Shown one piece after another: positions 4,517-63,400 of a stretch of 64,000 nt of DNA. The stretch comes from a candidate division TA06 bacterium 32_111 (lineage in GTDB: Bacteria > Hydrothermota > 32-111). Each line of letters starts with the position of its first letter. Within the stretch, counting starts at the first letter, position 1. Location: positions 18,225-82,224 of the forward strand of contig LGFX01000005.1 in the NCBI GenBank assembly GCA_001508335.1, given 5' to 3'. The notes under the pieces are model-generated. The model did no database searches, had not been told where the DNA came from, and worked only from the letters and a program-made list of their open reading frames with translations. The translations under genes were made by a program, and so were the position numbers.

Positions 4517-5314
4517 TCATTTTAAAAGTTTTATAGAACTGATTTTATCAAGAATGATCTCGTACCCGTACTTTTTATCATACTTCAAAAAACCCTTAAC
4601 CAAAATATTTTGATTCTTAAAATAAAGGATATTTATATTCTTTCTAAAAAATTCTTTACTTAAATTTTCAAAAATCACTATTGTAAAATTTTTATCACCT
4701 TTCAGTTTTATAAAGTAAGTATCACTCTTTTTCGATCTGTATACATCCTCTACGTAAGCTTTGAAAATTATCCACCCGTTCTCATACTTTTTATAATTTT
4801 TTACTATATCTTTGAAATCGAGAGTATCTGAGAAAGAATCTATAGAAAAAGAAGAACTTCTTATCTTTAAATATTTATTGTAGAGATATTCAAACATTGA
4901 AGAATCTGATAAATTTATATAAAAAAGACCCTTTGAATATTTTTGTGGTTGAATTGCCCTGTTACATATTATAAAACTTTTTGATGTAGAGAAAATAATA
5001 GAATAGTTTATAAGAGAATCGTCAGCAAAAAGTAAAGTATCGACGAATAAAGATAAACTATCTTTCAACGAGTATTTTTTTGATATAGAACTTTTTGAAA
5101 GTATAACAGTTATATTTAAATCATTTTTCTCTTTTAAAATATTGAGGAAATTTTTATCTGTGAAATCGGGTGAAACTATAGTTATCGCTTGTTTTGAAGA
5201 AGAAAGAAAACTTTTAAAACTATCAAAAAAATCTTTATGCTCAAAACCTATTTCGTTTGAATAAGTAAAAATGTTAATTAGAAATATGAAGAAAATAAAA
5301 AATTTTCTTTTCAT
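4517..5314 (-). CDS. Secreted protein with a degenerate PLD-like N-terminal domain and a C-terminal OB-fold
   Basis: Signal peptide; SKQAITIVSPDFTD/ITVILS resembles PLD_2 but no HKD motif is present; C-terminal VEDVY...FTIVIF...ILVKG...EIILD looks like an OB-fold. Confidence 0.45.
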   Translation of the reverse strand: MKRKFFIFFIFLINIFTYSNEIGFEHKDFFDSFKSFLSSSKQAITIVSPDFTDKNFLNILKEKNDLNITVILSKSSISKKYSLKDSLSLFVDTLLFADDSLINYSIIFSTSKSFIICNRAIQPQKYSKGLFYINLSDSSMFEYLYNKYLKIRSSSFSIDSFSDTLDFKDIVKNYKKYENGWIIFKAYVEDVYRSKKSDTYFIKLKGDKNFTIVIFENLSKEFFRKNINILYFKNQNILVKGFLKYDKKYGYEIILDKISSIKLLK

Positions 5315-6699
5315 AGAAAAATTTTATCAGGGTTAAAAATATTATCTGGGTCCAAAAGTTTTTTTATATTCCTTTGGATCTCTATCTCCTTTTCTGAAAA
5401 AACGAGTTTCATGTATTTTCTTTTATAAATACCTATACCGTGTTCACCTGATAGTTTTCCTCCGAGTTTAACAGAAATTTCCATAATTTCACTCAAAACA
5501 TTTTCTATGTTCTTTTCAAAATTTTTATCATCCTCTTTAAGTTTTAAAATGTTTATATGAACATTACCATCACCTGCATGACCAAAGGTTATTATAGGTA
5601 TTTTGTATTTTTCTTCTAAAAGGTGTAGATTTTTTATAAGTTCTGAAAGAGAGTTGATTGGAACGACCACATCCTCCCTTTCCCTTTTCACTGACATCAT
5701 AACCATAGCATCATGTAAAGATCTTCTCGCTTTCCATATCTTTTCTTGAAAGTTCTTATCCTCAGCTACAAGTATGTCAACACATCTTAGTTTTGATGAG
5801 ATAAAATCTATCTTTTCTATACTCTTATCAACTATCTCCCTATCGTACCCATCAATTCTCAAAAGTAGTTGTGCTTCCCCTTTCTGAGAAGCCATCTGGT
5901 TTCCAAGAAAATTTTTCGCAGCTTCCAAAGCCCTTTTCTCCATAAACTCTATCGTTTGTGGAAAAACTCCAGAATGGATGATCTTCACAACTGCGTTTGA
6001 AGCTTCATCTATTCTTTCGAAAGCGAGTAAAAGATCTATACTGTATTTTGGCAAAGGTAAAAGTGAAAAAGTTATCTCGGTTATAAAACCTAAAGTTCCC
6101 TCAGAACCTATAAAAATGTCCTTCATGTTGTAGCCAGTAGCATCCTTTCTAACCTTTCCACCGAATTTTAAAATTTCACCAATTGGAGTAACAATCTTTA
6201 AACCTTTAACATAATCTTTTGTTGTTCCGTATTTTACAGCAGATGGACCTCCAGAGTTTTCAGCTACATTGCCTCCTATAGAACACGAATCGAGAGATGC
6301 TGGATCAGGTGGATAAAAAAGTTCTAAACTCTCAACTTCCCTTTTAAGATCACCTGTTATTATTCCAGGTTGAGTTGTGACCATAAAATTTTCTCTATCT
6401 ACTTCGATTATTTTATCCATTAGTTCGGTTGAGATTATTATAGAAGGATAGAGAGGTATGGCTCCTCCTGAAAGGCCGGTTCCCCTTCCTCTTGGAATAA
6501 CTGGTATCTTTTCTTTGTTTGAAAATTTTATTAACTCAACTATTTCTTCTTCATTTTCTGGATGACAAACGAGTAATGGAAAGGAAAACCTATTACCTGA
6601 TTCATCTGAATAATATTTTTCAAGTAAACTTTCATCGAAAACAATTCTCTTTTCAGAAATTATATTTTTCAAACTGTTATAAATTTTTTTCCTTTCCAT
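5311..6699 (-). CDS. FAD-linked oxidase, GlcD/D-lactate dehydrogenase family
   Basis: PRGRGTGLSGGA, YPPDPAS, GGNVAENSGG, GSEGTLG, FGHAGDGNVH, SGEHGIG, NPDKIF motifs. Confidence 0.9.
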   Translation of the reverse strand: MERKKIYNSLKNIISEKRIVFDESLLEKYYSDESGNRFSFPLLVCHPENEEEIVELIKFSNKEKIPVIPRGRGTGLSGGAIPLYPSIIISTELMDKIIEVDRENFMVTTQPGIITGDLKREVESLELFYPPDPASLDSCSIGGNVAENSGGPSAVKYGTTKDYVKGLKIVTPIGEILKFGGKVRKDATGYNMKDIFIGSEGTLGFITEITFSLLPLPKYSIDLLLAFERIDEASNAVVKIIHSGVFPQTIEFMEKRALEAAKNFLGNQMASQKGEAQLLLRIDGYDREIVDKSIEKIDFISSKLRCVDILVAEDKNFQEKIWKARRSLHDAMVMMSVKREREDVVVPINSLSELIKNLHLLEEKYKIPIITFGHAGDGNVHINILKLKEDDKNFEKNIENVLSEIMEISVKLGGKLSGEHGIGIYKRKYMKLVFSEKEIEIQRNIKKLLDPDNIFNPDKIFL

Positions 6700-6790: not shown

Positions 6791-9769
6791 ATGGAAAGGG
6801 AACCAATAGTTGAAAAGTTTATCCAATCTTACACATCCTACAAAAACAACATCGAAATCTTTCACGATCTCTCAACCTTCAAGGTAAAGGAGGTTCTTCT
6901 TGTCGCAACATTTTATGATGGTTTTATTCTTGAGGAGGAGGGAAGGTTAGCGGAAAGGATCTTTGGAGAGTACCATAAACTCTCTTTGCCTGATGCACCA
7001 AGGGTTACAAACGCAATAAACGGTGAAGAGGCATGTAACTGGCTTAAAAGGGAACATTTTGATATGGTCATTTTGACAATGAGGATAGATGGGATGTCTC
7101 CATATCAGTTAAAAGAAAAGATTAGAAGTATAAATAAAGATATCCCCATTGTGATACTTTTGAATGACAACGGAGATATACCCCTTATCAGGGAGCAGTT
7201 AAAAAAAGATAAAGATAAGGATCTCGTTTTTGTTTGGAATGGAGATTCTAAGGTTTTTCTTGCAATGATAAAATATGTTGAGGATAAAAAAAATATAGAA
7301 AGGGATACAACCATTGGTAATGTGAGGGTAATACTTCTTGTCGAGGATTCGATAAGGTATATTTCAAGGTATTTACCTATTCTTTACACTGAAATTTTAA
7401 AACAAACCCAGAGGCTGATAATACAGGAAAAACTCGATGATATGAAAAAACTTTTGCGTTTGAGGGCTCGACCGAAAATTATCATAGCAACAAATTTTGA
7501 GGATGCTGTTTTCTATTTTGAGAAGTATAAAGATAACCTTTTAACCGTAATTTCAGATATGAAATTCCCAAAAAACAATGCTACCAATTATAACGCTGGA
7601 TATGAGTTGATAAAATTTGTTAAGGAGTCGATGCCTGAATTACCATGTCTTTTACAATCTTTTGAAAAAGAGAATTTGAAAAAGGCTAAAGAGTTGAAAG
7701 TCTCTTTTATAAACAAAAACAGTGATAAATTGAGTCAGGAGTTGAGAAGTTTCATATTCAACAATCTAGGTTTCGGATCCTTCGTTTTTAAAGATAGAAA
7801 GGGAAAAGAGATAGTAAAAGCGATTAACATAGAATCTTTTAGAAAAATTCTATTAACTATTCCATCAGAGTCATTAGTTTTCCATGCCAACCTTAACCAA
7901 TTCTCTGCCTGGCTTATGGCAAGAGGTGAAATAAAAATTGCTAAAAAATTGCAAAAGTTGAAAATTTCGGATTTCAAATCTGTAGAGGATCTAAGGGAAT
8001 ATCTTATAGATATAACTTTGGATATTGATAAAGAGTCTATAAAGGGTAAGGTTGTAAAGTATTCTGAAAATTTGAAGAAGGATGAAGAGGTTATAACTCA
8101 GATTGCTGATGGAACTCTTGGAGGTAAGGGAAGGGGTATAGCTTTCGTTAACAATATTCTCCAGAATACGGACATATTTGAAACTTTTGAGAATGTTAAA
8201 GTGTCGATGCCCAAAACTATGCTTATAGGCTCTGAAGAGTTTTCAAATTTTATAGAAAGAAACAAACTCTCCCAATATATTCTTCACGAGAAAGATTATA
8301 CTAAATTAAGAAAAAAATTTTTGAAAGGGAAACTTTCAAATGAACTTATATACAAGTTGAGAAAGAAGTTGAAAAGTTTCACAAAACCAATTGCTGTTAG
8401 ATCTTCAAGTCTTTTTGAAGATTCCATATCACAATCTTTTTCAGGTGTTTTCGAAACATATATGCTTCCAAACAATGATGAAGATTTTGAAAAAAGGTTG
8501 AAAGATATTGAGGATACTATAAAACTCGTTTTTTCATCAGTTTTCTCTCCTTCAGCAAAAGCATATTTTAAGGCTATAAACTACAAGATTGAAGAAGAAA
8601 AGATGGCTGTGATTATTCAGGAAGTCGTCGGGCATACATATGGAAAATATTACTACCCTTCATTCTCTGGAGTAATGCAATCTGACAATTACTATCCCAT
8701 ATCCCATCTTAAAAGAGAGGATGGGATTTGTGAAGTAGCTGTTGGACTTGGGAAATATGTTATAGATGGTAACGATTCATTTAGATTCTGCCCCAAATAT
8801 CCTGATATAGATATAAACATAAACAACAAAACACAAAAATTCTTTTACGCTATAAATATTGAAGATAAAAAGAAGTTCAACCTTCTCGATGGTGATGGTT
8901 CAACACTTGAGAGCGTTGATATAGATTATGCAAGAAAAAATGAAAGTTTGAACTATATAGGTTCTGTTATAGAAACTTTCAGTGGAAATTTAACGGATGA
9001 TTTAAAAAAGAAAGGTCCTCTTGTTATAAACTTCAACTCTATAATAAAATATGAATATTTTCCCCTTTCAAAGATATTGAACAATATAAGTTCCATTATA
9101 AAATTCGCTATAGGTTCCCCTTGTGAAATAGAGTTCGCTGCTGATCTCAATCCTGATGAAAATGGGAAAATGAGGTTCTATATTTTGCAGATAAAACCTA
9201 TTATAAGGAAATACTCTGAAATAGATGTTGACATAGAAAGCATTCCAAGGGACAGGATAATCTTTTTCTCAGATAATGCTATGGGCAATGGGCTTTTGGA
9301 TAATATAAAGGATATAATACTTATCAATCCGGAAAAGTTCGATAGGTTAAAAAGTATCGAACTTGTTCCTAAGATAGAAGAGATAAACATAGAGTTTGGA
9401 AGGAAAGGTAAAAAATATATAATCGCTGGGCCAGGTAGATGGGGGACAAAAGATCCATTTTTAGGGATACCTGTTCTATGGTCATCAATATCCAATGTGA
9501 AAGTAATTGTTGAAATAGAGATGAAGGATATGCTAATAGAACCATCTTTAGGTTCACATTTCTTCCATAATGTTGTTACCATGAATGTTTTTTATCTTAC
9601 AATATTCAGCCAGAAGAAATCTGATTCTTTCATTGATTGGGATCTTTTATATAAGGAAAAGAATATAAAAGATCTGGGAAACAATGTATTACATATAGAA
9701 TTTGAGAAACCTCTAAAAATTTTGATAGATGGGAAAAGAGGTAAAGGTGCAATAGTTAAAAGTGATTAA
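6791..9769 (+). CDS. Receiver-domain / PPDK_N (PEP-synthase-like ATP-grasp) fusion protein
   Basis: Two REC-like domains (ILLVEDS...VISDMKFP); ATP-grasp motifs GGKGRG, AVRSSSLFEDS, MAVIIQEVVG, EIEFA, ILQIKP; C-terminal GPGRWG...GSHFFHN. No PEP-utiliser C-terminal barrel. ATG 6791 follows GGAGGT. Confidence 0.85.
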   Translation: MEREPIVEKFIQSYTSYKNNIEIFHDLSTFKVKEVLLVATFYDGFILEEEGRLAERIFGEYHKLSLPDAPRVTNAINGEEACNWLKREHFDMVILTMRIDGMSPYQLKEKIRSINKDIPIVILLNDNGDIPLIREQLKKDKDKDLVFVWNGDSKVFLAMIKYVEDKKNIERDTTIGNVRVILLVEDSIRYISRYLPILYTEILKQTQRLIIQEKLDDMKKLLRLRARPKIIIATNFEDAVFYFEKYKDNLLTVISDMKFPKNNATNYNAGYELIKFVKESMPELPCLLQSFEKENLKKAKELKVSFINKNSDKLSQELRSFIFNNLGFGSFVFKDRKGKEIVKAINIESFRKILLTIPSESLVFHANLNQFSAWLMARGEIKIAKKLQKLKISDFKSVEDLREYLIDITLDIDKESIKGKVVKYSENLKKDEEVITQIADGTLGGKGRGIAFVNNILQNTDIFETFENVKVSMPKTMLIGSEEFSNFIERNKLSQYILHEKDYTKLRKKFLKGKLSNELIYKLRKKLKSFTKPIAVRSSSLFEDSISQSFSGVFETYMLPNNDEDFEKRLKDIEDTIKLVFSSVFSPSAKAYFKAINYKIEEEKMAVIIQEVVGHTYGKYYYPSFSGVMQSDNYYPISHLKREDGICEVAVGLGKYVIDGNDSFRFCPKYPDIDININNKTQKFFYAINIEDKKKFNLLDGDGSTLESVDIDYARKNESLNYIGSVIETFSGNLTDDLKKKGPLVINFNSIIKYEYFPLSKILNNISSIIKFAIGSPCEIEFAADLNPDENGKMRFYILQIKPIIRKYSEIDVDIESIPRDRIIFFSDNAMGNGLLDNIKDIILINPEKFDRLKSIELVPKIEEINIEFGRKGKKYIIAGPGRWGTKDPFLGIPVLWSSISNVKVIVEIEMKDMLIEPSLGSHFFHNVVTMNVFYLTIFSQKKSDSFIDWDLLYKEKNIKDLGNNVLHIEFEKPLKILIDGKRGKGAIVKSD

Positions 9770-9773
9770 CCCC

Positions 9774-9801
9774 TTGACAAAAATTCCTCATATGTTTTAA
9801 T
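9774..9801 (+). promoter_or_regulatory. sigma70-type promoter of nfnAB
   Basis: TTGACA-16-TTTAAT with extended TG; SD AGGAGG before ATG 9823. Confidence 0.55.
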
Positions 9802-9822
9802 TTTTATAATTAAGGAGGAATT

Positions 9823-10650
9823 ATGTACCAAATACTTGAACATCAAAAAATTGGGCAAAATATCCACAAACTGGTGATAAAAGCACCATTGATAGCAAGA
9901 GAAGCAAAACCAGGTCAATTCGTAATACTCAGATCTTATGAAAATGGGGAGAGAATACCCATAACTATCTGTGATAAGGATAAAGAAAGGGGAAGTATTA
10001 CTCTCTATATACAAGAGGTGGGGAAATCTACCGCAAAGATTGGGAGTTTAAAAGAGAACGATTACATTGTTGATGTTGTTGGACCTCTTGGAAAAGCTGC
10101 AAACATTGAAAAGGTGGGAACAGTTGTTACGGTAGGTGGTGGAGTTGGTTGTGCGATCACATATCCTGAAACCAAAGCTTACAAAGAAGTTGGGAATTAT
10201 GTTATTTCTATTATGGGTTTTAGAAATGTTTCCTTCAAAATACTTGAAGACGAGATGAAAAGTATCAGTGATGAACTTTACATAACAACGGATGATGGTT
10301 CTTATGGTGAGAAAGGATTTGTATCCGATAAGTTGAAAGAACTAATAAATAAGGGTAAAAAAATAGATGAGGTTCTTGTGATCGGTCCTGCTATTATGAT
10401 GAAAGTAGTTTCAGATATTACAAAAGAGTATGGAATAAAAACTATAGCATCTTTAAACTCTATAATGGTTGATGGAACTGGAATGTGCGGTGCATGCAGA
10501 ATTGAAGTTGGTGGAAAGACAAAATTTGCATGTGTTGATGGTCCAGAGTTCGATGCTCATCAGGTAGATTTTTCACTTTTGATGAAGAGGTTATCCATGT
10601 ATAAGGATGAAGAAAAACTCTCATATGAAAAGTTTATAAACGAGAGGTGA
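9823..10650 (+). CDS. nfnA: NfnA/SudB-like FAD/[2Fe-2S] subunit of electron-bifurcating transhydrogenase
   Basis: KPGQFVILR, ERIPITI, VGPLG, GGGVG, and MVDGTGMCGACR...CVDGPEFD (Asp/Cys 2Fe-2S ligands); adjacent to a GltD-like gene. Confidence 0.85.
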   Translation: MYQILEHQKIGQNIHKLVIKAPLIAREAKPGQFVILRSYENGERIPITICDKDKERGSITLYIQEVGKSTAKIGSLKENDYIVDVVGPLGKAANIEKVGTVVTVGGGVGCAITYPETKAYKEVGNYVISIMGFRNVSFKILEDEMKSISDELYITTDDGSYGEKGFVSDKLKELINKGKKIDEVLVIGPAIMMKVVSDITKEYGIKTIASLNSIMVDGTGMCGACRIEVGGKTKFACVDGPEFDAHQVDFSLLMKRLSMYKDEEKLSYEKFINER

Positions 10651-13759
<3,109 letters not shown>

Positions 13760-13763
<4 letters not shown>

Positions 13764-15115
13764 TGGAGGAGAAAAGATATAAGATTCTTATAGTTGATGA
13801 TGTGAAAGATAGCATTGAACTTGTAAGTAGAAATTTAGAACAGGCTGGGTATATTACTTTCACCGCAACCTCACCTATAAAAGGTTCAGAGATACTCAAA
13901 AATAACGACATAGATCTTGTAATTACCGATTTAAGGATGCCTGATATAGATGGAATTGCATTCACAAGGTATATAAAAGAAAATTATAAAAATGTTGAAA
14001 TAATAATGATAACAGGTTATCCATCTATTGAAAGCGCTGTTGATGCTGTGAAAACAGGTGTTAGCGAATTTTTACCAAAGCCTTTCACAGATGATGAACT
14101 CTTTGCAACAGTTGAAAAGGTCCTTTTCAAATTGAAAGTAAAAAATGTTCTTAACAAAGAGGAGAAAAAGAGGAGTTCTGTTTTTCATGGAATAATTGGA
14201 AACAGTGACAAGATGAAAAAAATATTTGAACTTATAGATAAAGCATCACAGACAACTGCAACAGTTTTGATTACAGGAGAGAGTGGAACTGGAAAAGAGA
14301 TGGTTGCAAGAGCTATACATTACTCATCCTCAAGGGCAAGTCAGAGTTTTGTTCCAGTAAACTGTGGAGGGATTCCAGAAGAGTTACTTGAAAGTGAACT
14401 TTTCGGATACGTTAAAGGTTCTTTCACCGGAGCAAACGAGACGAGAGCGGGATTTTTCCAGACAGCTGATGGTGGAACAATATTTCTCGATGAGATAGGG
14501 GAGACGAGCCTTTCTATGCAGGTTAAACTTTTAAGGGTACTTCAGGATAAAACAGTTTATATGATAGGTTCAAGAAAACCTCAAAAAATAGATGTAAGGG
14601 TAATATGTGCTACAAACAAAAATCTTGAAGAACTTGTTAAGAAAGGTATTTTCAGAGAGGATCTATATTTCAGATTGAATGTGATAAATGTTGAACTTCC
14701 CCCTTTAAGGGAAAGGAGGGAGGATATCCCAATTCTCCTTGAGCATTTTGCAGCAAAGTACAGTAAAGAACTTGGAAAGGAAAAACCAAAATTTACTGAG
14801 AACGCTGTTAAAAGTTTGAGTGAATACTTTTGGCCAGGCAATGTTAGGGAACTTGAAAATATTGTTCAGAGGTTGATAATAATGAAAGAGGATAATGTTA
14901 TTGATGTTCCAGACCTCCCATCACTTATGAGATTCAACCTCCCTTATAAAACCGATCTTACAAGAAAACTTTCAGAAGTTGAATGTGATTATATAAAGGA
15001 TGTTTATGAGAGCCAAGGAAAAAATAAAAGTAAAACAAGTGAGATACTTGGAATCGATAGAAAAACTTTAAGGGAAAAGTTGAAAAGGTGTCAGATAGAA
15101 GTTGAAGAGGAGTAA
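13760..15115 (+). CDS. NtrC-family sigma54-dependent response regulator
   Basis: REC domain (IVDD, TDLRMP), Walker A GESGTGKE, GSFTGA loop, FLDEIG, WPGNVRELEN, C-terminal Fis-type HTH (LGIDRKTLREKL). Confidence 0.95.
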
Positions 15116-15144
15116 AATTCCCCCACTGAGTAAAAATTCCCCAC
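15110..15144 (+). promoter_or_regulatory. Tandem candidate enhancer (UAS) sites
   Basis: GAGTAAAATTCCCCCAC (15110-15126) and GAGTAAAAATTCCCCAC (15128-15144), 73-107 bp upstream of the sigma54 -24 box. Confidence 0.6.
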
Positions 15145-15151
15145 CCAGAAG

Positions 15152-15176
15152 AATTTAAAAAAATCTTTTTTAAATT
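15152..15176. repeat. AT-rich inverted repeat between the UAS and the sigma54 promoter
   Basis: AATTTAAAAAA-ATC-TTTTTTAAATT; could be a bend site or weak terminator. Confidence 0.35.
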
Positions 15177-15216
15177 TAACACCCCCTAAAATAGATAACT
15201 TAGCGGATTAAACTTT

Positions 15217-15232
15217 TGGCACGATTGTTGCT
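15217..15232 (+). promoter_or_regulatory. sigma54 (-24/-12) promoter
   Basis: TGGCACGATTGTTGCT matches TGGCACG-N4-TTGC; directly downstream of a bEBP gene and about 30 bp before ATG 15263. Confidence 0.9.
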
Positions 15233-15262
15233 TAATTATATGGAAAAGAAAAAGGAGGTCTT

Positions 15263-15574
15263 ATGATGACAGTAAAAGAAAGAATAGAAGAGAAAAAGGA
15301 AACAGGTTTAAAAAATTTTGAAGGGCTCTGCGTAACATGTAAGAACAACAAAACCTGCATTTTCCTTCAGAATGCAACAAAGCCGATAATAAGTTGTGAA
15401 GAGTTTGAAAATGTAGAAACTATTGAAACAACAAAAAAAGATTTGAAAGAGAATTTTGAAAAGAAAGAAAAAGTTTATGAACTCAAAGGACTTTGTGCAA
15501 ACTGTGAAAACAGATTTGATTGTAAATTTGAAAAACCTGAAAGTGGTGTTTGGCACTGTGAAGAGTACAGATAA
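15263..15574 (+). CDS. Small Cys-rich metal-binding protein with a duplicated CxxC-x5-C-x11/12-CEE motif
   Basis: GLCVTCKNNKTC...SCEEF and GLCANCENRFDC...HCEEY; SD AGGAGG. Confidence 0.75.
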   Translation: MMTVKERIEEKKETGLKNFEGLCVTCKNNKTCIFLQNATKPIISCEEFENVETIETTKKDLKENFEKKEKVYELKGLCANCENRFDCKFEKPESGVWHCEEYR

Positions 15575-15580
15575 TATTTT

Positions 15581-16810
15581 ATGGATATTTTAAATTATTC
15601 TTCTTATCAAAATGAAGGTGAACTTTTAAAAGTTAAGGAGTTTTCTGAGATTGCCAAAAAGAGTCTTCTTGATAAGGATATGCGCGCTATCCTTATCAAA
15701 CCTTCAAAAGTTATAAAAAACTCCGAAAACTTTTTATTTGAAGATAAAGTTGTTCAGTTAGGATCAATATTTGTAAAACACACTTTTCTTAACGAAACCG
15801 ATGTAACAACATTTCTTTTTGATGATGAAGAAAATTTTGAAGAATACTTTTTGAAATCTTTTTATTCCTCTCTGAAATACTCTTTTCTTGATATTCCCTT
15901 CGGTGGTTCAACTTTAGGTCTTATAGTTCCAAAGGATTTATCACTTTCAAACGAAAAGGTTAAAAGGAAATTGAGTTCATTACTTGTAAAAAATTTTTCA
16001 GATATTTTGAATGAGCAGAACTATTTGAAAATTAAAGAGGATGATCGTGAAAAAAAAGATTTCATAATAAAGTTGATCGAAAATATTGATAAACCAAGAA
16101 TTTCAAAAAAATTCAAATTTCTTCTTAAAAACCCTTTAAGAAAAAAGATAATCAAAGAAAAGTATGAGGCGTTATGGTTGAAAAGTTTTGTTAAATATTT
16201 TTATAAAAAAGATAGGGTAAGGGTTATTATAGATTCAATAAATCTTAGGTCTTTTAATTTTTTGAAAGAAATTTTAAATGATGGATATTTTGTAGTTATT
16301 GGTTTTGGAGAAAAGAACTACTCTTACTATTCACCAAAGGGAATTGATTGTAAAGATATAGCATTCATTGAAAATAGGGAAACAAACGAAAAATGTATAG
16401 ATTATGTTGACCTTTTGAAAAAAGAGACCGATCTATTTTTAGAATTTGGGGGAGAAAACAATTTTAACGAAACTATGGCTAAAATTGTAAAGTGTGGAAT
16501 ATATTGTGAATTTGAGGACCTTTCAACATCCTTTCAAAGTGTAAAATTTTTGAAAAACCGAAATATAATATATTTACCTTCTCTTCTTCTTGATTGTGTT
16601 GACGAGATATTTGATTATTTTGAAGTTATTGAAAGAAAGAGAGAAGAGGTGATGAGTGTTGATGAAATCGAACTAAGGATGGAAACATATGTAAATTTTG
16701 TTATTTCCTATTTTGATTCTTTTCTTGAAAACCAGTGGAAAGTTTTTGAATCTGTACTTTTGAGAAGTTTTGAAAATTACAGAAAAAAATTTTCACTTGT
16801 TTATGGGTGA
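15581..16810 (+). CDS. Degenerate Glu/Leu/Phe/Val-dehydrogenase-fold protein (probable pseudoenzyme) 1
   Basis: LKYSFLDIPFGGSTLGL corresponds to K..DIPFGGAKGG; ETDLFLEFGGENNF...CEFEDLSTS...YLPSLL...DYFE corresponds to the GDH C-domain. Catalytic Lys and GxGxxG are lost; ORF is intact. Confidence 0.7.
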   Translation: MDILNYSSYQNEGELLKVKEFSEIAKKSLLDKDMRAILIKPSKVIKNSENFLFEDKVVQLGSIFVKHTFLNETDVTTFLFDDEENFEEYFLKSFYSSLKYSFLDIPFGGSTLGLIVPKDLSLSNEKVKRKLSSLLVKNFSDILNEQNYLKIKEDDREKKDFIIKLIENIDKPRISKKFKFLLKNPLRKKIIKEKYEALWLKSFVKYFYKKDRVRVIIDSINLRSFNFLKEILNDGYFVVIGFGEKNYSYYSPKGIDCKDIAFIENRETNEKCIDYVDLLKKETDLFLEFGGENNFNETMAKIVKCGIYCEFEDLSTSFQSVKFLKNRNIIYLPSLLLDCVDEIFDYFEVIERKREEVMSVDEIELRMETYVNFVISYFDSFLENQWKVFESVLLRSFENYRKKFSLVYG

Positions 16811-16813
16811 TAT

Positions 16814-18022
16814 ATGGTTGATGAAAAAGTTATTTACAAAAAAAATGGAAGTTTTGGAAAAATAGATTTTTTCCTTGAAAATTTTAATGATAAGGAAAAG
16901 GAAACTATTTTGAACATTTATAACTTTAAGGAGATTTTTGTTAACATACCTTTGAAAAGTTCAGATGGTGAGATAAAGAACGTAACTGGGGTTAAGGTTG
17001 ACAATTTCTTATCATACAACAACACTTTTTCAAACCTAAGGATACACCCTTACTTTGATATTAACTATTTTAGAGATTTCGCTATACTAAACACTATAAC
17101 ATTTTCCCTTTTCGGTATACCTGTAAATGGAAGTTTTTCATCTATTCTTATAGATCCTTTCGAAATTTCTACTGAAGAGAAAGAAGAAGTTTTTAAGATG
17201 TTCTCTTCACTTTTAAAAAATGAAATTTTAGAGAAAGAGATATTTTTCTCTTCAGACGTAAATTCGAATTATAACGATATAAAAATATTTACAGATTCAT
17301 TCCATTTTGATGATTTGGAAAGAAAAAAGGTTATAAGTTTTCTTGATTATTACAACGATTTAAAAAAAGATATAGATATAGATAAATTGAATGAGTTTTC
17401 AGTTTTTTATTCTATACTCAAATACTGTGAATTGAAGAAAAAAAGTTTTGATGAACTTTCAGTTGTAATATATGGATTTGGAGAGAAACCTTATTTCCTT
17501 TCGAAGATTTTAAAAAAGGAAGGTTTTAACATTGTTGGAATATTGACTCACCTTGGTTCGTTTTATGACCCTTACGGTATTCAGATAGATGAGTTTTATA
17601 AAAATTATCTTTCGAACTTTTCAAGCAAAGAAGAAGCAAGGTATAAAAAAATAGATCTTTACACTTTTGAGAATGTGAGATCTGACATTTCAATTTTTTA
17701 TGTAGATATTTTCAAAAAGGATTTTTTGAAAAACCTCAACACCTCTTTGATAGTTGAAGGAAGAAAGATGCTTTTGGGAGAGATGGAGATTGAAACAATT
17801 GAAGAAAAAGGGATTGAACTTTTGCCATCGGAGTTGACTTGTTCAGGGGAGATACTACTTTACGACGAGTTAAGAAAAAACAGGATTCCAAAAAAGATTG
17901 CAACTATGATACAGAAGGAAATTTATGAAAAGATGGACGAAATATTTGAAACTGATGGGGAAGATTTAAGAACAAAAATTTTAAAAATCTCATTTAAAAA
18001 TATACTTGAAAATCTCTCATAA
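16814..18022 (+). CDS. Degenerate Glu/Leu/Phe/Val-dehydrogenase-fold protein (probable pseudoenzyme) 2
   Basis: EIFVNIPLKSSDGEIKNVTGVKV, LRIHP, GIPVNGSFSSILIDP...EKE, SSDVNS, VVIYGFGEK, YDPYGI, LIVEG, LLPSELTCSG all align to the GDH pattern; GPxKGG and GGxKGG are absent. Confidence 0.75.
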   Translation: MVDEKVIYKKNGSFGKIDFFLENFNDKEKETILNIYNFKEIFVNIPLKSSDGEIKNVTGVKVDNFLSYNNTFSNLRIHPYFDINYFRDFAILNTITFSLFGIPVNGSFSSILIDPFEISTEEKEEVFKMFSSLLKNEILEKEIFFSSDVNSNYNDIKIFTDSFHFDDLERKKVISFLDYYNDLKKDIDIDKLNEFSVFYSILKYCELKKKSFDELSVVIYGFGEKPYFLSKILKKEGFNIVGILTHLGSFYDPYGIQIDEFYKNYLSNFSSKEEARYKKIDLYTFENVRSDISIFYVDIFKKDFLKNLNTSLIVEGRKMLLGEMEIETIEEKGIELLPSELTCSGEILLYDELRKNRIPKKIATMIQKEIYEKMDEIFETDGEDLRTKILKISFKNILENLS

Positions 18023-18039
18023 ACGCTCATATACCTCAA

Positions 18040-18068
18040 AAAAGGAGAGAGTTAAACTCTCTCCTTTT
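18040..18068. terminator. Bidirectional intrinsic terminator
   Basis: AAAAGGAGAGAGTT-A-AACTCTCTCCTTTT between convergent genes. Confidence 0.8.
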
Positions 18069-18093
18069 CATAAGACAAAGAAAATTTTAACTA

Positions 18094-19500
<1,407 letters not shown>

Positions 19501-19530
19501 TAATTTAATTTAAATGGTTTGATATAGCTC

Positions 19531-19558
19531 TTGACTTTTAAACTTAAAGGTGTAAAAT
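19531..19558 (+). promoter_or_regulatory. sigma70-type promoter of the right gdhA
   Basis: TTGACT-16-TAAAAT; SD AGGAGG before ATG 19598. Confidence 0.6.
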
Positions 19559-19597
19559 ACGGCTGTTTTATAATAAAAATACATTCAGGAGGATTAA

Positions 19598-20938
19598 ATG
19601 AATAGTTATGTATCGCAAGTAATAGAAGAAGTAAAGCAGAGATACTTCTGGGAAAAAGAGTTCATACAGGCTGTTACAGAAGTTTTAGAATCTTTATCAC
19701 TCGTAATTGATAAAGAGCCAAAATACAAAAAATACAGAATACTTGAAAGAATAGTTGAACCTGAAAGAATAATATTCTTCAGAGTTCCATGGACAGATGA
19801 CAAGGGTGAGATACACATCAACAGAGGTTACAGAATAGAGTTCAACTCAGCACTTGGTCCATACAAGGGTGGAATAAGATTCCATTCTTCAGTAACATTG
19901 TCTATCTTAAAGTTCTTGGCTTTTGAGCAGATTTTTAAAAACTCTCTAACAGGTCTTCCAATGGGTGGTGGAAAAGGTGGAAGTGACTTTGATCTTAAAG
20001 GAAAATCTGAAGGTGAAGTTATGAGATTCTGCCAGTCATTCATGACAGAACTTTTCAGACACATCGGCCCTGATACGGATGTGCCAGCAGGAGACATTGG
20101 AGTTGGTGCAAGAGAGATAGGCTACATGTTTGGACAGTACAAAAGATTGAAAAACGAGTTCACAGGAGTTCTTACTGGGAAAGGGCTAAACTGGGGTGGT
20201 TCTTTGATACGACCTGAAGCAACTGGTTTTGGTGTTGTTTATTTTGCGGAAGAGATGTTGAAAACAAGAAAAGAATCACTTGAAGGGAAAAGGGTCGCTA
20301 TAAGTGGTTTTGGTAATGTCGCTTGGGGTGCTACGATTAAAGCTAACGAACTCGGTGCGAAGGTTGTTACATTATCAGGCCCTGATGGATACATCTACGA
20401 TGAGGATGGAGTAAAGGGTGAAAAGATAGATTATATGCTTGAAATGAGAGCAAGTGGAAGAGATTGTGTTAAAGATTACGCTGATAAGTTCAAAGTCAAA
20501 TTCGTTGCTAACAGGAGACCATGGGAAGTTAAAGTTGATGTCGCTTTACCATGTGCAACACAGAATGAGATAGATGAAAACGATGCAAAAAATTTGATAA
20601 AGAATGGATGCAAGTATGTAGTTGAGGGATCAAACATGTCATCAACACCGCAAGCTATTGAGGCATTCCTTAGCAACAATATACTTTATGCTCCAGGAAA
20701 AGCATCAAATGCAGGCGGGGTTGCTACAAGTGGACTTGAGATGTCTCAAAATTCTATGAGATTACAATGGCCAAGAGAAGAAGTTGACAAGAGGTTGAGA
20801 GAAATAATGGTTAAAATACATCAGTCATGTGTTGATGCTGCAAAAGATTATGGAACACCAGGCAACTATGTCAACGGTGCGAATATAGCAGGATTCAAGA
20901 AAGTTGCCGATGCTATGATAGATCAGGGACTTGTTTAA
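19598..20938 (+). CDS. gdhA: Glutamate dehydrogenase, NAD-type signature
   Basis: Same catalytic motifs, but GFGNVAWG and LSGPDG as in the NAD-specific Clostridium symbiosum GDH. Confidence 0.95.
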   Translation: MNSYVSQVIEEVKQRYFWEKEFIQAVTEVLESLSLVIDKEPKYKKYRILERIVEPERIIFFRVPWTDDKGEIHINRGYRIEFNSALGPYKGGIRFHSSVTLSILKFLAFEQIFKNSLTGLPMGGGKGGSDFDLKGKSEGEVMRFCQSFMTELFRHIGPDTDVPAGDIGVGAREIGYMFGQYKRLKNEFTGVLTGKGLNWGGSLIRPEATGFGVVYFAEEMLKTRKESLEGKRVAISGFGNVAWGATIKANELGAKVVTLSGPDGYIYDEDGVKGEKIDYMLEMRASGRDCVKDYADKFKVKFVANRRPWEVKVDVALPCATQNEIDENDAKNLIKNGCKYVVEGSNMSSTPQAIEAFLSNNILYAPGKASNAGGVATSGLEMSQNSMRLQWPREEVDKRLREIMVKIHQSCVDAAKDYGTPGNYVNGANIAGFKKVADAMIDQGLV

Positions 20939-20990: not shown

Positions 20991-21075
20991 TATTTCCCCC
21001 TTGACAAAAAGGTTTTGAAAATTAAATTATTGTTGACCAAAAAAAAAGAAATAAAATTAAAAGGAGGTGAGAATT

Positions 21076-21525
21076 ATGAAAAAGGAAATTCAAAAATTTT
21101 CACCATTCTCAGAACTTTTCGATTTAAGGAAAGAGATAGATGCATTGTTTGATGACAGATTCTTTGGTAAGATGTTACAGCCATACTATGAATCAAACTG
21201 GACTCCTTCTATGGATATATCAGAAACCGATAAAGAGTTTTTTGTTACCGTTGAACTACCTGGTTTGAAAAAAGAGGATATAACCCTCTCTATTGACAAC
21301 AATGTTTTAACCATAGAGGGTGAGAGAAAGAGTGAGAAAGAAGAGAAGGGAAAAACCTTCCATAGGATTGAAAGATCTTATGGAAAATTCTATAGGTCTG
21401 TAACATTACCTAAGAAAGTTGACGAGGATAATATAAAAGCATCATTCAAAGATGGTCTTTTAAATATAACTATTCCAAAAGTCGAAAAAGAAAAAGTGAA
21501 AAATATCGAGATATCAGATAAGTAA
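21076..21525 (+). CDS. Hsp20/alpha-crystallin small heat-shock protein
   Basis: P.MDISET, ELPGL, LTIEGER, ERSYGKFYRSVTLP, ASFKDGLLNITIPK; promoter TTGACA-16-TAAATT at 21001-21028. Confidence 0.95.
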   Translation: MKKEIQKFSPFSELFDLRKEIDALFDDRFFGKMLQPYYESNWTPSMDISETDKEFFVTVELPGLKKEDITLSIDNNVLTIEGERKSEKEEKGKTFHRIERSYGKFYRSVTLPKKVDEDNIKASFKDGLLNITIPKVEKEKVKNIEISDK

Positions 21526-54457: not shown

Positions 54458-55258
54458 TTAGAGATACTGCAAAAGTTCCTCTCCAATAACTCCGGCGAAA
54501 AGTTCTATGTAAGGTTTTACCGGACTCGAACTTATTTTGGGGAAGAGAACCTCTTCTATCTGAAAGAATCCAACAGATTCGCGCATTAGAACAGTTATTT
54601 TTATAGGTTTTTTGATTCCTTTTTTAATACTAACAGTTTGGATTGCTGATGCTGAGTACTTATGGATATCACCAACCCTTGGTTTTCTTTGAATCATAGA
54701 TGTAATTCTTGCTCTACCCTTTTCCATATCGCAACCATCACCTATCAGGACAAGTCCAGCTTCAAGTGAGTTTATAATTTTTGTTGCCATGTGTCCTATT
54801 ATCCCTTCTATCACCATAGATCTTACGATAATCTGTTTTTCGAATTCATGCTGGTAAATTTTCTCAAGTATCCTATTTATTATATTTAATCCGATAATGG
54901 AAGAATAGATCTCATGGTTCTCTCTGCTAACACTCATTCCTATATCATGCAAAAGTGATGCTATTATTACGGCTACTTTGCTATCAATCACATTGCCAAC
55001 CCCTTCATTCTCAAGGTTGAATTTCACTCCAGCGTTTTGTAAAAGATCAAACATCAAAAGAGAGTTAAGACATGCTCTTTTCATATGAACAGGCCCATGA
55101 TCGTTGAATCCTAACCTTTTTATAGAAACGTTATTTGAGTAGTTCATCAGGTATTCGACCTCTTTATCCTGAAAAATTAACTTCGCTGTTTCAAGACATT
55201 TTCCATCCAGTTTTGAGATAATAGTTTTTTCGAGTTCTAACTCTTTTTTTGATTTCAT
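54458..55258 (-). CDS. HD-domain phosphohydrolase
   Basis: NDHGPVH, LLHDIG, GH, DGCD...GRAR. Confidence 0.85.
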   Translation of the reverse strand: MKSKKELELEKTIISKLDGKCLETAKLIFQDKEVEYLMNYSNNVSIKRLGFNDHGPVHMKRACLNSLLMFDLLQNAGVKFNLENEGVGNVIDSKVAVIIASLLHDIGMSVSRENHEIYSSIIGLNIINRILEKIYQHEFEKQIIVRSMVIEGIIGHMATKIINSLEAGLVLIGDGCDMEKGRARITSMIQRKPRVGDIHKYSASAIQTVSIKKGIKKPIKITVLMRESVGFFQIEEVLFPKISSSPVKPYIELFAGVIGEELLQYL

Positions 55259-61302: not shown

Positions 61303-63400
61303 GAAATGGATGATACTATTGGTATTGATTTTGGGATCAATGGCATTATTTTCTGTAATAGAGATAAAGCAAGAAATACCATTTGGAAGTTTTGAGCCTA
61401 ATATTTATTCTCCCATTATTATAAATAGAGAAACGGATACTTTACTGTCAATACTTTGTTATACAGGAGACTATAATAATGCTATTTATAAATGGAGTAA
61501 ATATCAATTTGAATTTTTGGATTTTATTAAAGGCGGTTGGATAAGAGGAATTGGTGATTTTGATAGTGATGGATTTTTGGATTTAATGGGAATAAATCCT
61601 TCAGACAGTAATATGATATTTATAATTGAACAGCTATATAAAGATAGTATAAGTAAAGAGTGGACTTGGAAATTGAAAATGAATGAAAATGGGGAATATC
61701 ATTGTTTTGGGGTTACCTCATTGTTGAAAGGAGATGGGAAAAACAGGATATTTGGAGCGCCGAACCCTAATACAACTTATAATGACCCTTATGGCTGGTT
61801 TTATATGGATAGCGATAGTGATGATAGTTATTATTTCGCTTACAAAGATACATTTAAAAGAAAAGTTTATGCGATGGATATCGGATATATGGACAATGAT
61901 TCACTTTTAGATATTGTTACAATGACTCATTTAGGACACAAAGTGTATGAATCAAAGAATATGAATCAGGATTCATTTGTTTCGGTTTTTGACACAACTC
62001 TTGCTGGTACTTATTATGTTAAATTAATAGGGGATATTGACAAAGATGGCTATAATGATTATGTATTTGGTGGAAAAGCGTATGATCAATCTCCTGCCGA
62101 ATGGTTACATGACTTGTTTGAATGTGATGGTGACAATCACTATTTTAAAAAATGGAGTCGCTGGCAAAGAAAAGATTATGGACCATCAGGTTCAGTGGGA
62201 AGTGGTTGTGGGGGAACAGCAGGTGATATGGATGGCGATGGATACGATGAACTGGTTCTTTGTGCTGGATCTATTTTAGAGATATTCAAGGTAATGGGAA
62301 ATGATAGTTTTGAATTGATATGGAGTATGGATAATGATACATTTTCCGGAAGCAGTGTGATAATGGCTGATATGAATGGAAATTGCAGAAAAGAGATAAT
62401 ATGGAGTGGGGAATCAGACCCTCTTCTCCCATATACATATGGAATAGATATGATGAAGACATATATAATTGAGTGGAGAATGTTAAATTCTCCGGATACA
62501 ATAATCTATGGTAATACTATGGTTCCAGATTCTTTAACAAGTGATAGTTTTTTTATTTTCAACGAAGGGAGAGATACAATTTTAGTTGATTCAATAAGGT
62601 TTAAAAATCAGGAGTTTTTTGTCGATACTGAACTAACTTATCCATTAAAAATATATCCTGATGATAGTATGAAAATCAAAACAGGTTTTTATGCAGAAAG
62701 TACGGGATACTATCAGAGCGAAATGTATGTATATGGAGATAAAAACAAATATATAACAACATTGAAGGGAGGATTAGGAGTTGAATGCAGGATAGACAGC
62801 ATTAAAGCATCAGATGGTTTTGTAGCACAAAGTGGAGTTGATGGTGATGATTATGTAATAATATATTTCCATGGTCTAACCAATCAACCAAAAATAGATA
62901 GCAGTAATATAGATAAAATATTACAATTAAACAATGAACATTCATGGTTAAATATAGATAGTGCTTACTGGCTTCCTCGACTAATTCAGAAGGATAGGTT
63001 AAGGATAGAATTCAGAGATACATCTTCCACAGTATTGGTTGGAGATACAGTCTATCCAGATAGTTTAACAATACAGGAAACTTTATTGAAGGTTCCATGC
63101 TTTAATCCAACAGTAATAAATGGTAATTTTAGTCCGGCGGGAAATAATGAAAAAAAACTTTTAATTGAAGTTGAAAATAATGATTTAAAAATCGAAATAT
63201 CTGAACAATACATAATATGGAATACCCTTACTGAAGGAATGTTGATGTTATACGATATAACGGGAAGAGAAGTAATAAGAGAAGAATCTAAAGGGGGTAA
63301 ACATAAAACGAATGTAAAAAATTTAAAAAAAGGAATTTATTTTATAAAATTGAAAACACCTTCACATACAATTGTAAAAAAGTTATTGAAATTTGAATAA
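61301..63400 (+). CDS. Secreted FG-GAP/VCBS-repeat protein with an Ig-like (ASH) domain and T9SS-type CTD
   Basis: Signal MKWMILLVLILG...; GDFDSDGFLD, GDIDKDGYND, GDMDGDGYDE, ADMNGN; IFNEGRDTILVDSI; CTD LYDITGREV...LKKGIYFIK...KKLLK. Confidence 0.85.
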   Translation: MKWMILLVLILGSMALFSVIEIKQEIPFGSFEPNIYSPIIINRETDTLLSILCYTGDYNNAIYKWSKYQFEFLDFIKGGWIRGIGDFDSDGFLDLMGINPSDSNMIFIIEQLYKDSISKEWTWKLKMNENGEYHCFGVTSLLKGDGKNRIFGAPNPNTTYNDPYGWFYMDSDSDDSYYFAYKDTFKRKVYAMDIGYMDNDSLLDIVTMTHLGHKVYESKNMNQDSFVSVFDTTLAGTYYVKLIGDIDKDGYNDYVFGGKAYDQSPAEWLHDLFECDGDNHYFKKWSRWQRKDYGPSGSVGSGCGGTAGDMDGDGYDELVLCAGSILEIFKVMGNDSFELIWSMDNDTFSGSSVIMADMNGNCRKEIIWSGESDPLLPYTYGIDMMKTYIIEWRMLNSPDTIIYGNTMVPDSLTSDSFFIFNEGRDTILVDSIRFKNQEFFVDTELTYPLKIYPDDSMKIKTGFYAESTGYYQSEMYVYGDKNKYITTLKGGLGVECRIDSIKASDGFVAQSGVDGDDYVIIYFHGLTNQPKIDSSNIDKILQLNNEHSWLNIDSAYWLPRLIQKDRLRIEFRDTSSTVLVGDTVYPDSLTIQETLLKVPCFNPTVINGNFSPAGNNEKKLLIEVENNDLKIEISEQYIIWNTLTEGMLMLYDITGREVIREESKGGKHKTNVKNLKKGIYFIKLKTPSHTIVKKLLKFE

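Follow-up and report, generated by a model that had tools for sequence, protein, structure and literature searches.

Two catalytically dead glutamate dehydrogenase homologues, maintained by purifying selection in a predicted sigma-54-controlled gene cluster of a WOR-3 bacterium, as part of a putative module controlling glutamate dehydrogenase and the balance of NAD(P)H and ferredoxin

Why would a bacterium maintain, behind a sigma-54 promoter, two proteins with the fold of glutamate dehydrogenase (GDH) but without its catalytic lysine, next to two gdhA genes that appear to be intact? This question is raised by a 64,000-nucleotide stretch of contig LGFX01000005.1 from candidate division TA06 bacterium 32_111, an uncultured anaerobe, referred to below as the window (the stretch as a whole); public sources give the proteins of this host the candidate division label WOR-3. 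Genes were called from a listing of open reading frames (ORFs) and from Pfam and NCBIfam profile scans of the window. These sources confirmed the ten predicted genes that an earlier note, made from the sequence alone, had placed at 6791-20938: a protein with receiver and ATP-grasp domains (REC-PPDK_N), the two subunits of NfnAB, a sensor histidine kinase and its activator (a bacterial enhancer-binding protein, bEBP), a cysteine-rich mini-protein, the two GDH-like proteins (dGDH1 and dGDH2), and gdhA1 and gdhA2 (Table 1). The region was compared with 58 WOR-3 genomes, and the regulatory cassette within it was surveyed in one genome per species. It is considered probable that the genes of the cluster work as a module and that the dead GDHs have a function without being enzymes. 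The broader reading, mechanism included, is favoured with some reserve: that a widespread and apparently undescribed control module for GDH and NAD(P)H/ferredoxin balance takes, in this region, a form specific to the lineage.

Both dGDH1 and dGDH2 are homologous to GDH over the fold. For dGDH1, Pfam returned zero matches; NCBIfam GDH models scored 27-33 bits (GdhB_Halo, 3.8e-8), and PDB entry 3k8z was matched at 6.7e-10. dGDH2 gave weak matches to the Pfam ELFV families (ELFV_dehydrog_N, 1.9e-11) and to PDB entry 1gtm (2.1e-13). The nearest solved relatives of both are short-type GDHs, with E values of 1e-10 to 1e-13. Residues are numbered here as in the clostridial enzyme, which was checked on an alignment with 1bgv. 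It is apparent from the alignment that K125, in the motif G-G-x-K-G-G, has been replaced by Thr in dGDH1 (G-G-S-T-L-G) and by Phe in dGDH2 (N-G-S-F-S-S). dGDH1 also has no K89 and no equivalent of D165, and in dGDH2 K113 has become Thr. The dinucleotide-binding motif G-x-G-x-x-G/A is lost in dGDH1 (D-S-I-N-L-R) and partly kept in dGDH2 (G-F-G-E-K-P). All known Glu/Leu/Phe/Val dehydrogenases need the catalytic lysine, and neither protein has it, which bears out the earlier description of the pair as eroded GDHs. When the host genome was searched with a live short-type GDH as query, no further short-type GDH was found.

The selection acting on these genes was estimated against L056, a relative with 89% identity, with synonymous divergence (dS) of 0.27-0.66 overall and 0.44-0.59 for the dGDHs. 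The ratio of nonsynonymous to synonymous substitution (dN/dS) was low for both dGDH genes (Table 1); it was 0.090 for the mini-protein and 0.022-0.049 for the neighbouring genes. Neither dGDH1 nor dGDH2 is interrupted in G000, L056, G001 or G006, even where identity is as low as 28%; G002 has an uninterrupted dGDH1, and its dGDH2 is divided between the ends of two contigs. Since dN/dS is low and the frames are open, dGDH1 and dGDH2 are not pseudogenes, and both are under purifying selection.

These values bear directly on the possibility that the pair consists of decaying relics, functionless and made redundant when a second long-type gdhA was gained. Decay would account for the disappearance of catalytic residues from both proteins, for a dip in G+C content over 16-18 kb of the window (whose average is about 30%), and for the absence of any match in G009 and G010, two genomes of the genus of G006. 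It would also fit the rate at which the dGDH proteins change, about five times that of their neighbours: identity to G001 is 68-70%, against 89-95% for the neighbours, and identity to G006 is 28-30%, against 83-86% for gdhA. The long stem branches of the dGDHs in a maximum-likelihood tree (1.8-2.2 substitutions per site) fit it as well. The dead pair is accompanied by two long-type gdhA genes (in the window's genus and in G006), and a live copy in its place by one (in G003, G005, G007 and G008), a correlation that rests on few lineages and possibly on one event. Decay is difficult to reconcile with a dN/dS of 0.09-0.12 at unsaturated dS, or with 400-codon frames that stay open at about 27% G+C, where stop codons arise easily. 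The promoter, the upstream repeats and the mini-protein have also been kept, and, as a weak further point, contigs from an RNA library lie on both dGDH genes with 0 differences. Decay is regarded as unlikely, and retention of the dead GDHs as functional non-enzymes is preferred.

The same stems, a burst of change followed by constraint, could mark the conversion of dGDH1 and dGDH2 into enzymes with a different reaction or substrate and new catalytic residues; dGDH2, moreover, keeps its G-x-G, its D165 equivalent, and E-G and S-G motifs that are common to the inactive copies of related genomes. Such neo-functionalisation is judged improbable, given that the lost lysine is required in all known dehydrogenases of this kind, that dGDH1 also lacks the glycine motif, and that no new conserved polar cluster was identified in the dGDHs. 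A non-catalytic role therefore remains the preferred reading for both proteins.

Other WOR-3 genomes suggest how such a pair could have arisen. The order kinase-bEBP-mini-protein-GDH is found in WOR-3 families f1, f4, f5 and f7. In four other genomes of the window's family (G003, G005, G007 and G008), the kinase-activator-mini-protein unit is followed by two short-type GDHs, designated x and y. All catalytic residues are intact in x; in y the glycine motif is broken and K89Y and K125A are present. (For G003 the y copy, at L048:6496-7533, includes a masked stretch, X, and its residue state cannot be judged.) In families f4, f5 and f7 the unit carries one intact GDH, about 70% identical to x. 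Scores against the GdhA_Arch model fall from 474 bits for x and 380 for y, through 171 and 57.5 for the second and first dead copies (d2 and d1) of G006, to 53.5 and 27 for d2 and d1 of the window. This stepwise fall, together with the gene arrangements, places the dead pair at the end of a predicted series, from one GDH, through a catalytic and an inactive paralog, to two inactive paralogs; the sequences thus indicate descent from a normal sigma-54-driven GDH operon. The maximum-likelihood tree, built from short-type GDHs, gives good support to d1 and to d2 as clades, with an unresolved backbone in which long branches meet. The progression from active GDH to one and then two dead subunits would provide a clean case for studying the origin and retention of pseudoenzymes.

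The closest known parallel is the GDH of Thermus thermophilus, described in the available part of PMC9570180 as a heterohexamer of inactive, regulatory GdhA and catalytic GdhB with an AMP-sensing accessory subunit. The likeness lies in adjacent short-type paralogs, one of them inactive, accompanied by a small accessory protein, and the x/y pairs of the four genomes above would fit it. A catalytic and an inactive paralog were found side by side in these relatives, not in the window, where both copies are dead and lack a catalytic short-type partner in the genome. Further differences are that the accessory protein here is a Cys-rich mini-protein and does not resemble adenine phosphoribosyltransferase, that expression would depend on sigma-54, and that any oligomer here is a predicted one. 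In a complex model of dGDH1, dGDH2 and the mini-protein, in which the mini-protein was scored, the median was 0.67, and it fell to 0.00 and 0.00 when the mini-protein was swapped for unrelated proteins. Swapping chain 1 left a score of 0.55, so the score is not specific to dGDH1, and the model is taken as evidence neither for binding nor against it.

The claim that a sigma-54 operon begins with the Cys mini-protein was upheld: the sequence TGGCAC-N5-TTGCT about 30 nt before the mini-ORF is the only match to the consensus with zero mismatches in 64 kb. With one mismatch allowed, three matches were found in the window where 1.3 are expected, so it is the position of the promoter that counts and not the number of matches. 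The one-mismatch matches elsewhere in the window, at 54948-54963 (minus strand) and 61990-62005 (plus strand), are within chance expectation. A -24/-12-like element was present 5' of the mini-ORF, or of a fused GDH, in 14 of 15 WOR-3 loci. The two repeats upstream of the promoter are a likely binding site for the activator, and related paired elements of the type GGGGA..TCCCC were seen by eye at the equivalent place in other WOR-3 loci. The host genome contains rpoN and seven strong bEBP matches. All parts of an NtrC-type two-component sigma-54 system are thus present: an activator with REC, AAA+ and HTH_8 domains, a HisKA/HATPase kinase, rpoN and a -24/-12 promoter. Neither kinase nor activator reached the cut-off of any NCBIfam equivalog model (the best were ntrC, AtoC and AtoS, all below), and the pair is therefore not a named system. 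Orthologues of the activator from different phyla are mostly 55-60% identical to that of the window (51-64% overall).

No usable match to the N-terminus of the kinase was obtained from Pfam at E values up to 1. An AlphaFold2 model of residues 1-345 (predicted local distance difference test score, pLDDT, 86.5) contains two alpha/beta domains linked via a long helix, and its top Foldseek matches are GAF-PHY and GAF-GAF tandems (E value 4e-9). E219, R220, K222, E223, C226 and G297 are invariant in 29 orthologues, with one cysteine in the linker helix, and no membrane segments were seen when the sequence was judged by eye. The modelled tandem-GAF-like fold, the invariant residues and the lack of membrane segments together point to a cytoplasmic sensor of a small molecule or of redox state.

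This regulatory unit is not confined to WOR-3. Its core consists of the tandem-GAF kinase, the NtrC-type activator, the repeats, the sigma-54 promoter and, as first gene, the mini-protein with eight cysteines (Cys8). The scan recovered 378 such loci from many phyla, and the counts that follow refer to the best 80 of the 378. Labels among these 80 include Planctomycetota, Verrucomicrobiota, Zixibacteria, Spirochaetota, Thermodesulfobacteriota, Bacteroidales, Cloacimonadota and Ignavibacteria, among others. The activator lies directly 5' of the mini-protein gene in 66 loci, usually after the kinase; six loci have no upstream DNA and eight have no activator match. A -24/-12 element within 330 nt upstream was found with a strict pattern in 38 loci and with a loose pattern in 27 more, and was not found with either pattern in 15.

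The genes carried behind the mini-protein fall mainly into two classes. The cargo is a short-type GDH in 24 of the 80 loci. In 25 loci a NuoE-like protein is accompanied by a NuoF-GltD fusion, in 11 by NuoF-like and Fer2/Fer4 proteins, and in 10 it stands by itself or where the contig ends; NuoE-like genes occur in 49 loci in total, three of which are also among the 24 with GDH. Two loci have a convergent REC-PPDK_N gene 3' of the mini-protein, and in eight the cargo was not recognised, four of these having less than 900 nt of sequence beyond the mini-protein. In domain content the NuoE/NuoF/GltD cargo equals Stn and NfnABC of the Bfu family, a likeness drawn from the available parts of PMC7483475, PMC10482914 and PMC11829005. 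In a record titled Desulfatiglandaceae (L076:4851-7919), the gene after the mini-protein encodes a 1022-aa Bac_GDH_CD protein of the large NAD-GDH class, which is, by this assignment, a putative third GDH class in the same cassette. The cassette with its conserved mini-protein thus precedes GDH or Bfu-type genes in hundreds of species.

The mini-protein has 2294 relatives at E values up to 1e-3, all of them unnamed and none with a Pfam family. At E values up to 1, Pfam returned NADH_4Fe-4S alone (E value 0.025), and matches in the ESM Atlas were to clusters of 'hypothetical protein' only. G76, L77, C78, C81, C87, G95, W97 and C99 are invariant (alignment A1). An AlphaFold2 model built on a 15-row alignment had a pLDDT of 50.9 and no secondary structure, and was unusable. 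Many relatives (P0014-P0034 and others) are of double length, about 205-230 aa, and in L098, L123 and L131 such long forms adjoin a GDH gene on the opposite strand. A different kind of extension is seen in 34 longer proteins with the Cys4 module, of which 30 are fusions to GDH and four to NuoE-like proteins, the latter with the module at either end; three WOR-3 genomes encode a single module fused to the N-terminus of GDH. Pfam at E values up to 1 gave nothing usable for the fused N-terminal extensions. In these fusions the Cys4 module is tied to exactly the two types of cargo, GDH and NuoE-like, which argues that it would work on or with those enzymes; yet it is also, as the mini-protein, the constant first gene of a regulated operon.

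Control of GDH by sigma-54 is not in itself new. In Bacillus subtilis, RocR drives sigma-54-dependent expression of rocG. Sigma-54-dependent GDH genes also appear among Bacillota COG0334 regulons (PMC12316311) and as Geobacter GSU1305 (PMC2725144), according to the available parts of these papers. These systems share with the window a GDH behind a -24/-12 promoter with a dedicated bEBP. They differ in that the activator here belongs to a two-component pair with a tandem-GAF kinase, that the Cys8 mini-protein comes first, and that in other phyla the same cassette drives Bfu/Stn-like oxidoreductases. No description was found in the literature searched of a cassette with these two classes of cargo, of the Cys4 family, of the pairing of REC-PPDK_N with GDH or of a dead-GDH pair under selection, although the supplements of PMC12316311, PMC4641369 and PMC9304861 might list such operons. 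Nor was a paper found that connects NfnAB or the Bfu enzymes with GDH operons or with a two-component cassette of the sigma-54 type; the words 'glutamate', 'sigma' and 'histidine kinase' do not occur in the available part of the Bfu family paper. Of the single elements, sigma-54-dependent GDH expression, inactive GDH subunits, NfnAB and the Bfu enzymes have all been described before. There is a fair chance that one of two regulatory devices considered here, the cassette with its mini-protein and the REC-PPDK_N protein, is new in kind.

Do the remaining genes of the region belong with the sigma-54 operon? The whole 14 kb is conserved in the window's genus, all genes being present on L021-L024 at 40-96% identity. 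Both nfn products are homologous to the corresponding subunits of NfnAB (NfnSL), nfnB matching the solved large subunit at 1e-172. nfnB overlaps the start of the kinase gene by 10 nt, and the kinase gene overlaps the start of the activator gene by 4 nt; given these overlaps, nfnA, nfnB, the kinase and the activator are most simply read as one predicted transcription unit. In G007, NfnAB is likewise the transhydrogenase beside the kinase, and nfnBA adjoins the GDH pair in a different orientation. In G006 the genes between REC-PPDK_N and the kinase encode a 1134-aa NfnA/StnA-like protein, a NuoF-like and a NuoE-like protein (a set of Bfu type), so that the position of NfnAB is taken over by what is, from its domains, a predicted non-homologous enzyme with the same kind of function.

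These comparisons also speak to the possibility of mere inherited gene order, with NfnAB, REC-PPDK_N and the live gdhA genes unrelated to the sigma-54 operon. Full collinearity is indeed seen in one genus only, the region is flanked by genes of unrelated kinds (Hsp20, sugar-nucleotide enzymes, a FAD-linked oxidase), and REC-PPDK_N lies elsewhere in G007. Inheritance of gene order would not explain why the same partners recur in other orders, on other strands and in other phyla, why a non-homologous transhydrogenase occupies the position of NfnAB in G006, or why nfnB and the kinase gene overlap, and it is given little likelihood. The earlier view of the region as one module agrees with the synteny kept in the genus and with the recurrence of its parts, rearranged, in other families and phyla.

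The first gene of the region had been called a receiver-dikinase. Its product does have a receiver and an ATP-grasp domain, but the other domains of a dikinase were not detected. The domains are, in order, a pseudo-receiver, a true receiver, a DUF5752-like middle part, ATP-grasp (PPDK_N) and a conserved C-terminal domain. In an alignment of eight sequences (A2), the first receiver has Thr, Met or Val in place of the phospho-acceptor Asp, and in the second the five canonical residues, E185, D186, D256, S290 and K309, are invariant. Invariant residues of the C-terminal domain include H923. The protein shares the ATP-grasp nucleotide-binding domain with phosphoenolpyruvate (PEP) synthase and pyruvate phosphate dikinase. 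It differs from them in its two N-terminal receiver-like domains, its unrelated C-terminal domain and its genomic partner, GDH. The PEP-utilizers domain (phosphohistidine swivel) and the PEP/pyruvate-binding domain were not found by Pfam, the last 182 aa had no match at E values up to 1, and all PEP synthase equivalog models scored far below their cut-offs; the protein is thus no three-domain dikinase. ESM Atlas matches were to PPDK_N/Response_reg clusters.

REC-PPDK_N was found in 15 of the 58 WOR-3 genomes, and in family f2 its gene abuts the gdhA pair. In L063, labelled Sumerlaeota, it has the cassette on one side and a long-type gdhA on the other. A full-length homologue is present in 35 of 201 genomes sampled from the phylum of G058, whose record is titled Bacteroidales. 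Examination of gene neighbourhoods, proposed in the earlier note as a check on the PPDK_N and REC proteins, was positive for GDH: a GDH gene lies within 1 kb of REC-PPDK_N in 16 of the 20 Bacteroidota loci fetched. Six of those 16 show arrays of two successive GDH genes, each with a REC-PPDK_N paralog of its own behind it; the arrays are complete in L147, L149, L155 and L159 (gdhA2, REC-PPDK_N, gdhA1, REC-PPDK_N, short GDH). L143 (Bacteroidales) brings together gdhA, REC-PPDK_N, nfnBA and NuoEF-like genes, and L142 brings together gdhA, REC-PPDK_N and a bEBP. REC-PPDK_N thus stands repeatedly beside GDH genes, in no fewer than three phyla. Tandem duplicates of its gene, or copies that alternate with GDH genes, are frequent (L044:210-6141; L147, L149, L152, L155, L159), and in G012 two stand in a row beside gdhA.

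A paper of 1996 reports, to judge by its title, an effect on GDH activity in Bacteroides thetaiotaomicron that comes from genes 3' of gdhA. The GDH of B. fragilis is reported to undergo reversible inactivation, for which no source was found in the literature searched. BT1971, considered as a lead in B. thetaiotaomicron, was dropped, as the available part of PMC12596196 calls it a catalase.

The two live gdhA genes look like an NADP-type (gdhA1) and a NAD-type (gdhA2) enzyme in their coenzyme motifs, in line with the labels given earlier. Positions 238, 262 and 263 of 1bgv set coenzyme specificity. They are F, P and D in gdhA2, and gdhA1 has S and the stretch S-D-S-N-G. The GFGNVAWGA and SGPDGYIYD stretches of gdhA2 are identical to those of 1bgv, the NAD-specific enzyme of Clostridium symbiosum; the near-identical chain 1aup is labelled NAD-specific. 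The closest relatives of gdhA1 are NADP-specific enzymes, and its GSGNVAQYA and SDSNG motifs match those of the NADP-specific 5ijz and those of 4fcc. Orthologues of gdhA1 begin at residue 10, and its true start may be an ATG nine codons further in. A sigma-54 promoter was looked for 5' of gdhA2 in family f2, and a sigma-70-like one was found instead.

Several observations weigh against the broader reading, among them the fast change and long stems of the dGDHs described above. The live gdhA genes have sigma-70-like promoters of their own (Table 1), so that direct control by sigma-54 is not indicated; the switch proposed earlier, between NAD-linked catabolism and NADPH-linked assimilation, stays hypothetical. 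Orthology of d1 with x and of d2 with y comes from gene order and motifs, and the maximum-likelihood tree leaves it unresolved. The mini-protein, dGDH2 and REC-PPDK_N had no match in G009 and G010, so these genes can be lost. No GDH gene is near REC-PPDK_N in 4 of the 20 Bacteroidota loci (L144, L146, L154, L158), and REC-PPDK_N is not close to the cassette or to a gdhA gene in G007, nor is it in the 10 kb examined of G004.

With these points in mind, the following mechanism is proposed. The kinase would sense a cytoplasmic metabolite or redox cue, for which 2-oxoglutarate, glutamate and NAD(P)H are candidates, and would phosphorylate the activator, which would switch on mini-dGDH1-dGDH2 through sigma-54. 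The three products may come together as a GDH-like assembly that binds ligand without catalysis and serves as a partner in regulation or sensing, by analogy with the inactive GdhA of Thermus. The target of this assembly could be the NADP- and NAD-type GDHs encoded next to it, or it could provide feedback to the kinase. NfnAB, which would be produced along with the regulators, would couple NADPH from or for GDH to NADH and ferredoxin, and REC-PPDK_N would be a phosphorylation-gated, ATP-using factor acting on GDH.

A bolder version holds that there are two new devices, a pan-bacterial sensor-regulator of NAD(P)H/ferredoxin poise (kinase, activator and Cys8 mini-protein) and, in REC-PPDK_N, a signal-controlled, ATP-dependent modifier of GDH; this is put forward as speculative and rather doubtful. 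If true, the mini-protein would dock onto GDH or NuoE-type enzymes as a redox module built on a metal or on Fe-S, the GDH cargo would in this lineage have turned into a pure ligand sensor or regulator, and the modifier role of REC-PPDK_N would explain the 1996 title on genes downstream of gdhA. The subject is of some consequence, as in fermenting anaerobes it is GDH and the Nfn/Bfu transhydrogenases that determine how NADPH, NADH, ferredoxin and nitrogen are balanced, and little is known of their regulation outside model organisms. The receiver-controlled ATP-grasp protein, moreover, shows a gene-for-gene pairing with GDH in Bacteroidota, some of whose members can be cultured and are genetically tractable.

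Table 1. Predicted genes and regulatory elements of the region, in window coordinates
Feature	Position	Strand	Basis or remarks
REC-PPDK_N protein, 992 aa from ATG	6791..9769	+	PPDK_N 4.2e-37, Response_reg 1.6e-8
nfnA, small subunit of NADH-dependent ferredoxin:NADP oxidoreductase	9823..10650	+	NCBIfam NF004862 1.5e-124, above cut-off
nfnB, large subunit	10654..12054	+	PDB 4ylf_B 1.1e-172; 5jca_L (NfnI) 3.5e-171
Sensor histidine kinase, predicted cytoplasmic, N-terminal tandem-GAF-like sensor	12045..13763	+	Pfam HisKA + HATPase_c
NtrC-type bEBP, REC + AAA+ + HTH_8	13760..15115	+	Sigma54_activat 4.5e-72, Response_reg 4.9e-27, HTH_8 4.2e-9
Two direct copies of GAGTAAAA(A)TTCCCC element	15107..15146		Straddle bEBP stop codon
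Sigma-54 promoter TGGCAC-N5-TTGCT	15217..15232	+	Exact; about 30 nt 5' of mini-ORF
Mini-protein, 103 aa, 8 Cys, two Cys4 modules	15263..15574	+	G-L-C-x2-C-x5-C-x11-C-E-E-Y/F
dGDH1, GDH-fold, 409 aa	15581..16810	+	Without catalytic Lys and Rossmann glycine motif; dN/dS 0.124
dGDH2, GDH-fold, 402 aa	16814..18022	+	Without K113 and K125; keeps G-x-G, D165 equivalent; dN/dS 0.088
Bidirectional terminator-like hairpin	18044..18064		Between dGDH2 and gdhA1
gdhA1, long-type GDH, NADP-type coenzyme motifs	18094..19467	-	NF006929 1e-232
Sigma-70-like promoter of gdhA1	19500-19472	-	Shared intergenic region
Sigma-70-like promoter of gdhA2	19531-19558	+	Shared intergenic region
gdhA2, long-type GDH, NAD-type coenzyme motifs	19598..20938	+	Best PDB match 1bgv, 1.9e-181

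Short contigs from one metatranscriptome (RNA library X15), with 0-1 differences and a depth of 2-5, lie on the REC-PPDK_N gene, nfnA, nfnB, the nfnB/kinase junction, the 3' end of the bEBP gene, dGDH1, the 3' end of dGDH2 and gdhA2; they permit no ranking of the genes, may include carried-over DNA, and make the uncovered parts uninformative. DNA nearly identical to window positions 12000-20900 (word share 0.8-0.99) occurs in metagenome runs from five studies with the labels terrestrial, oil field, crude oil and wastewater, several of which may be the source of the assembly.

An Hsp20 gene (21067-21525) adjoins the cluster, and homologues 53-54% identical to it lie near the kinase or the mini-protein unit in G005 and G003 (L046:8962-9408; L048:12112-12558); this adjacency may be old synteny or a real link. 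On the other side, at 4517-6699 on the minus strand and divergent from the REC-PPDK_N gene, are a FAD-linked oxidase (FAD_binding_4 and FAD-oxidase_C) and a 265-aa protein of no family, whose synteny is kept within the genus.

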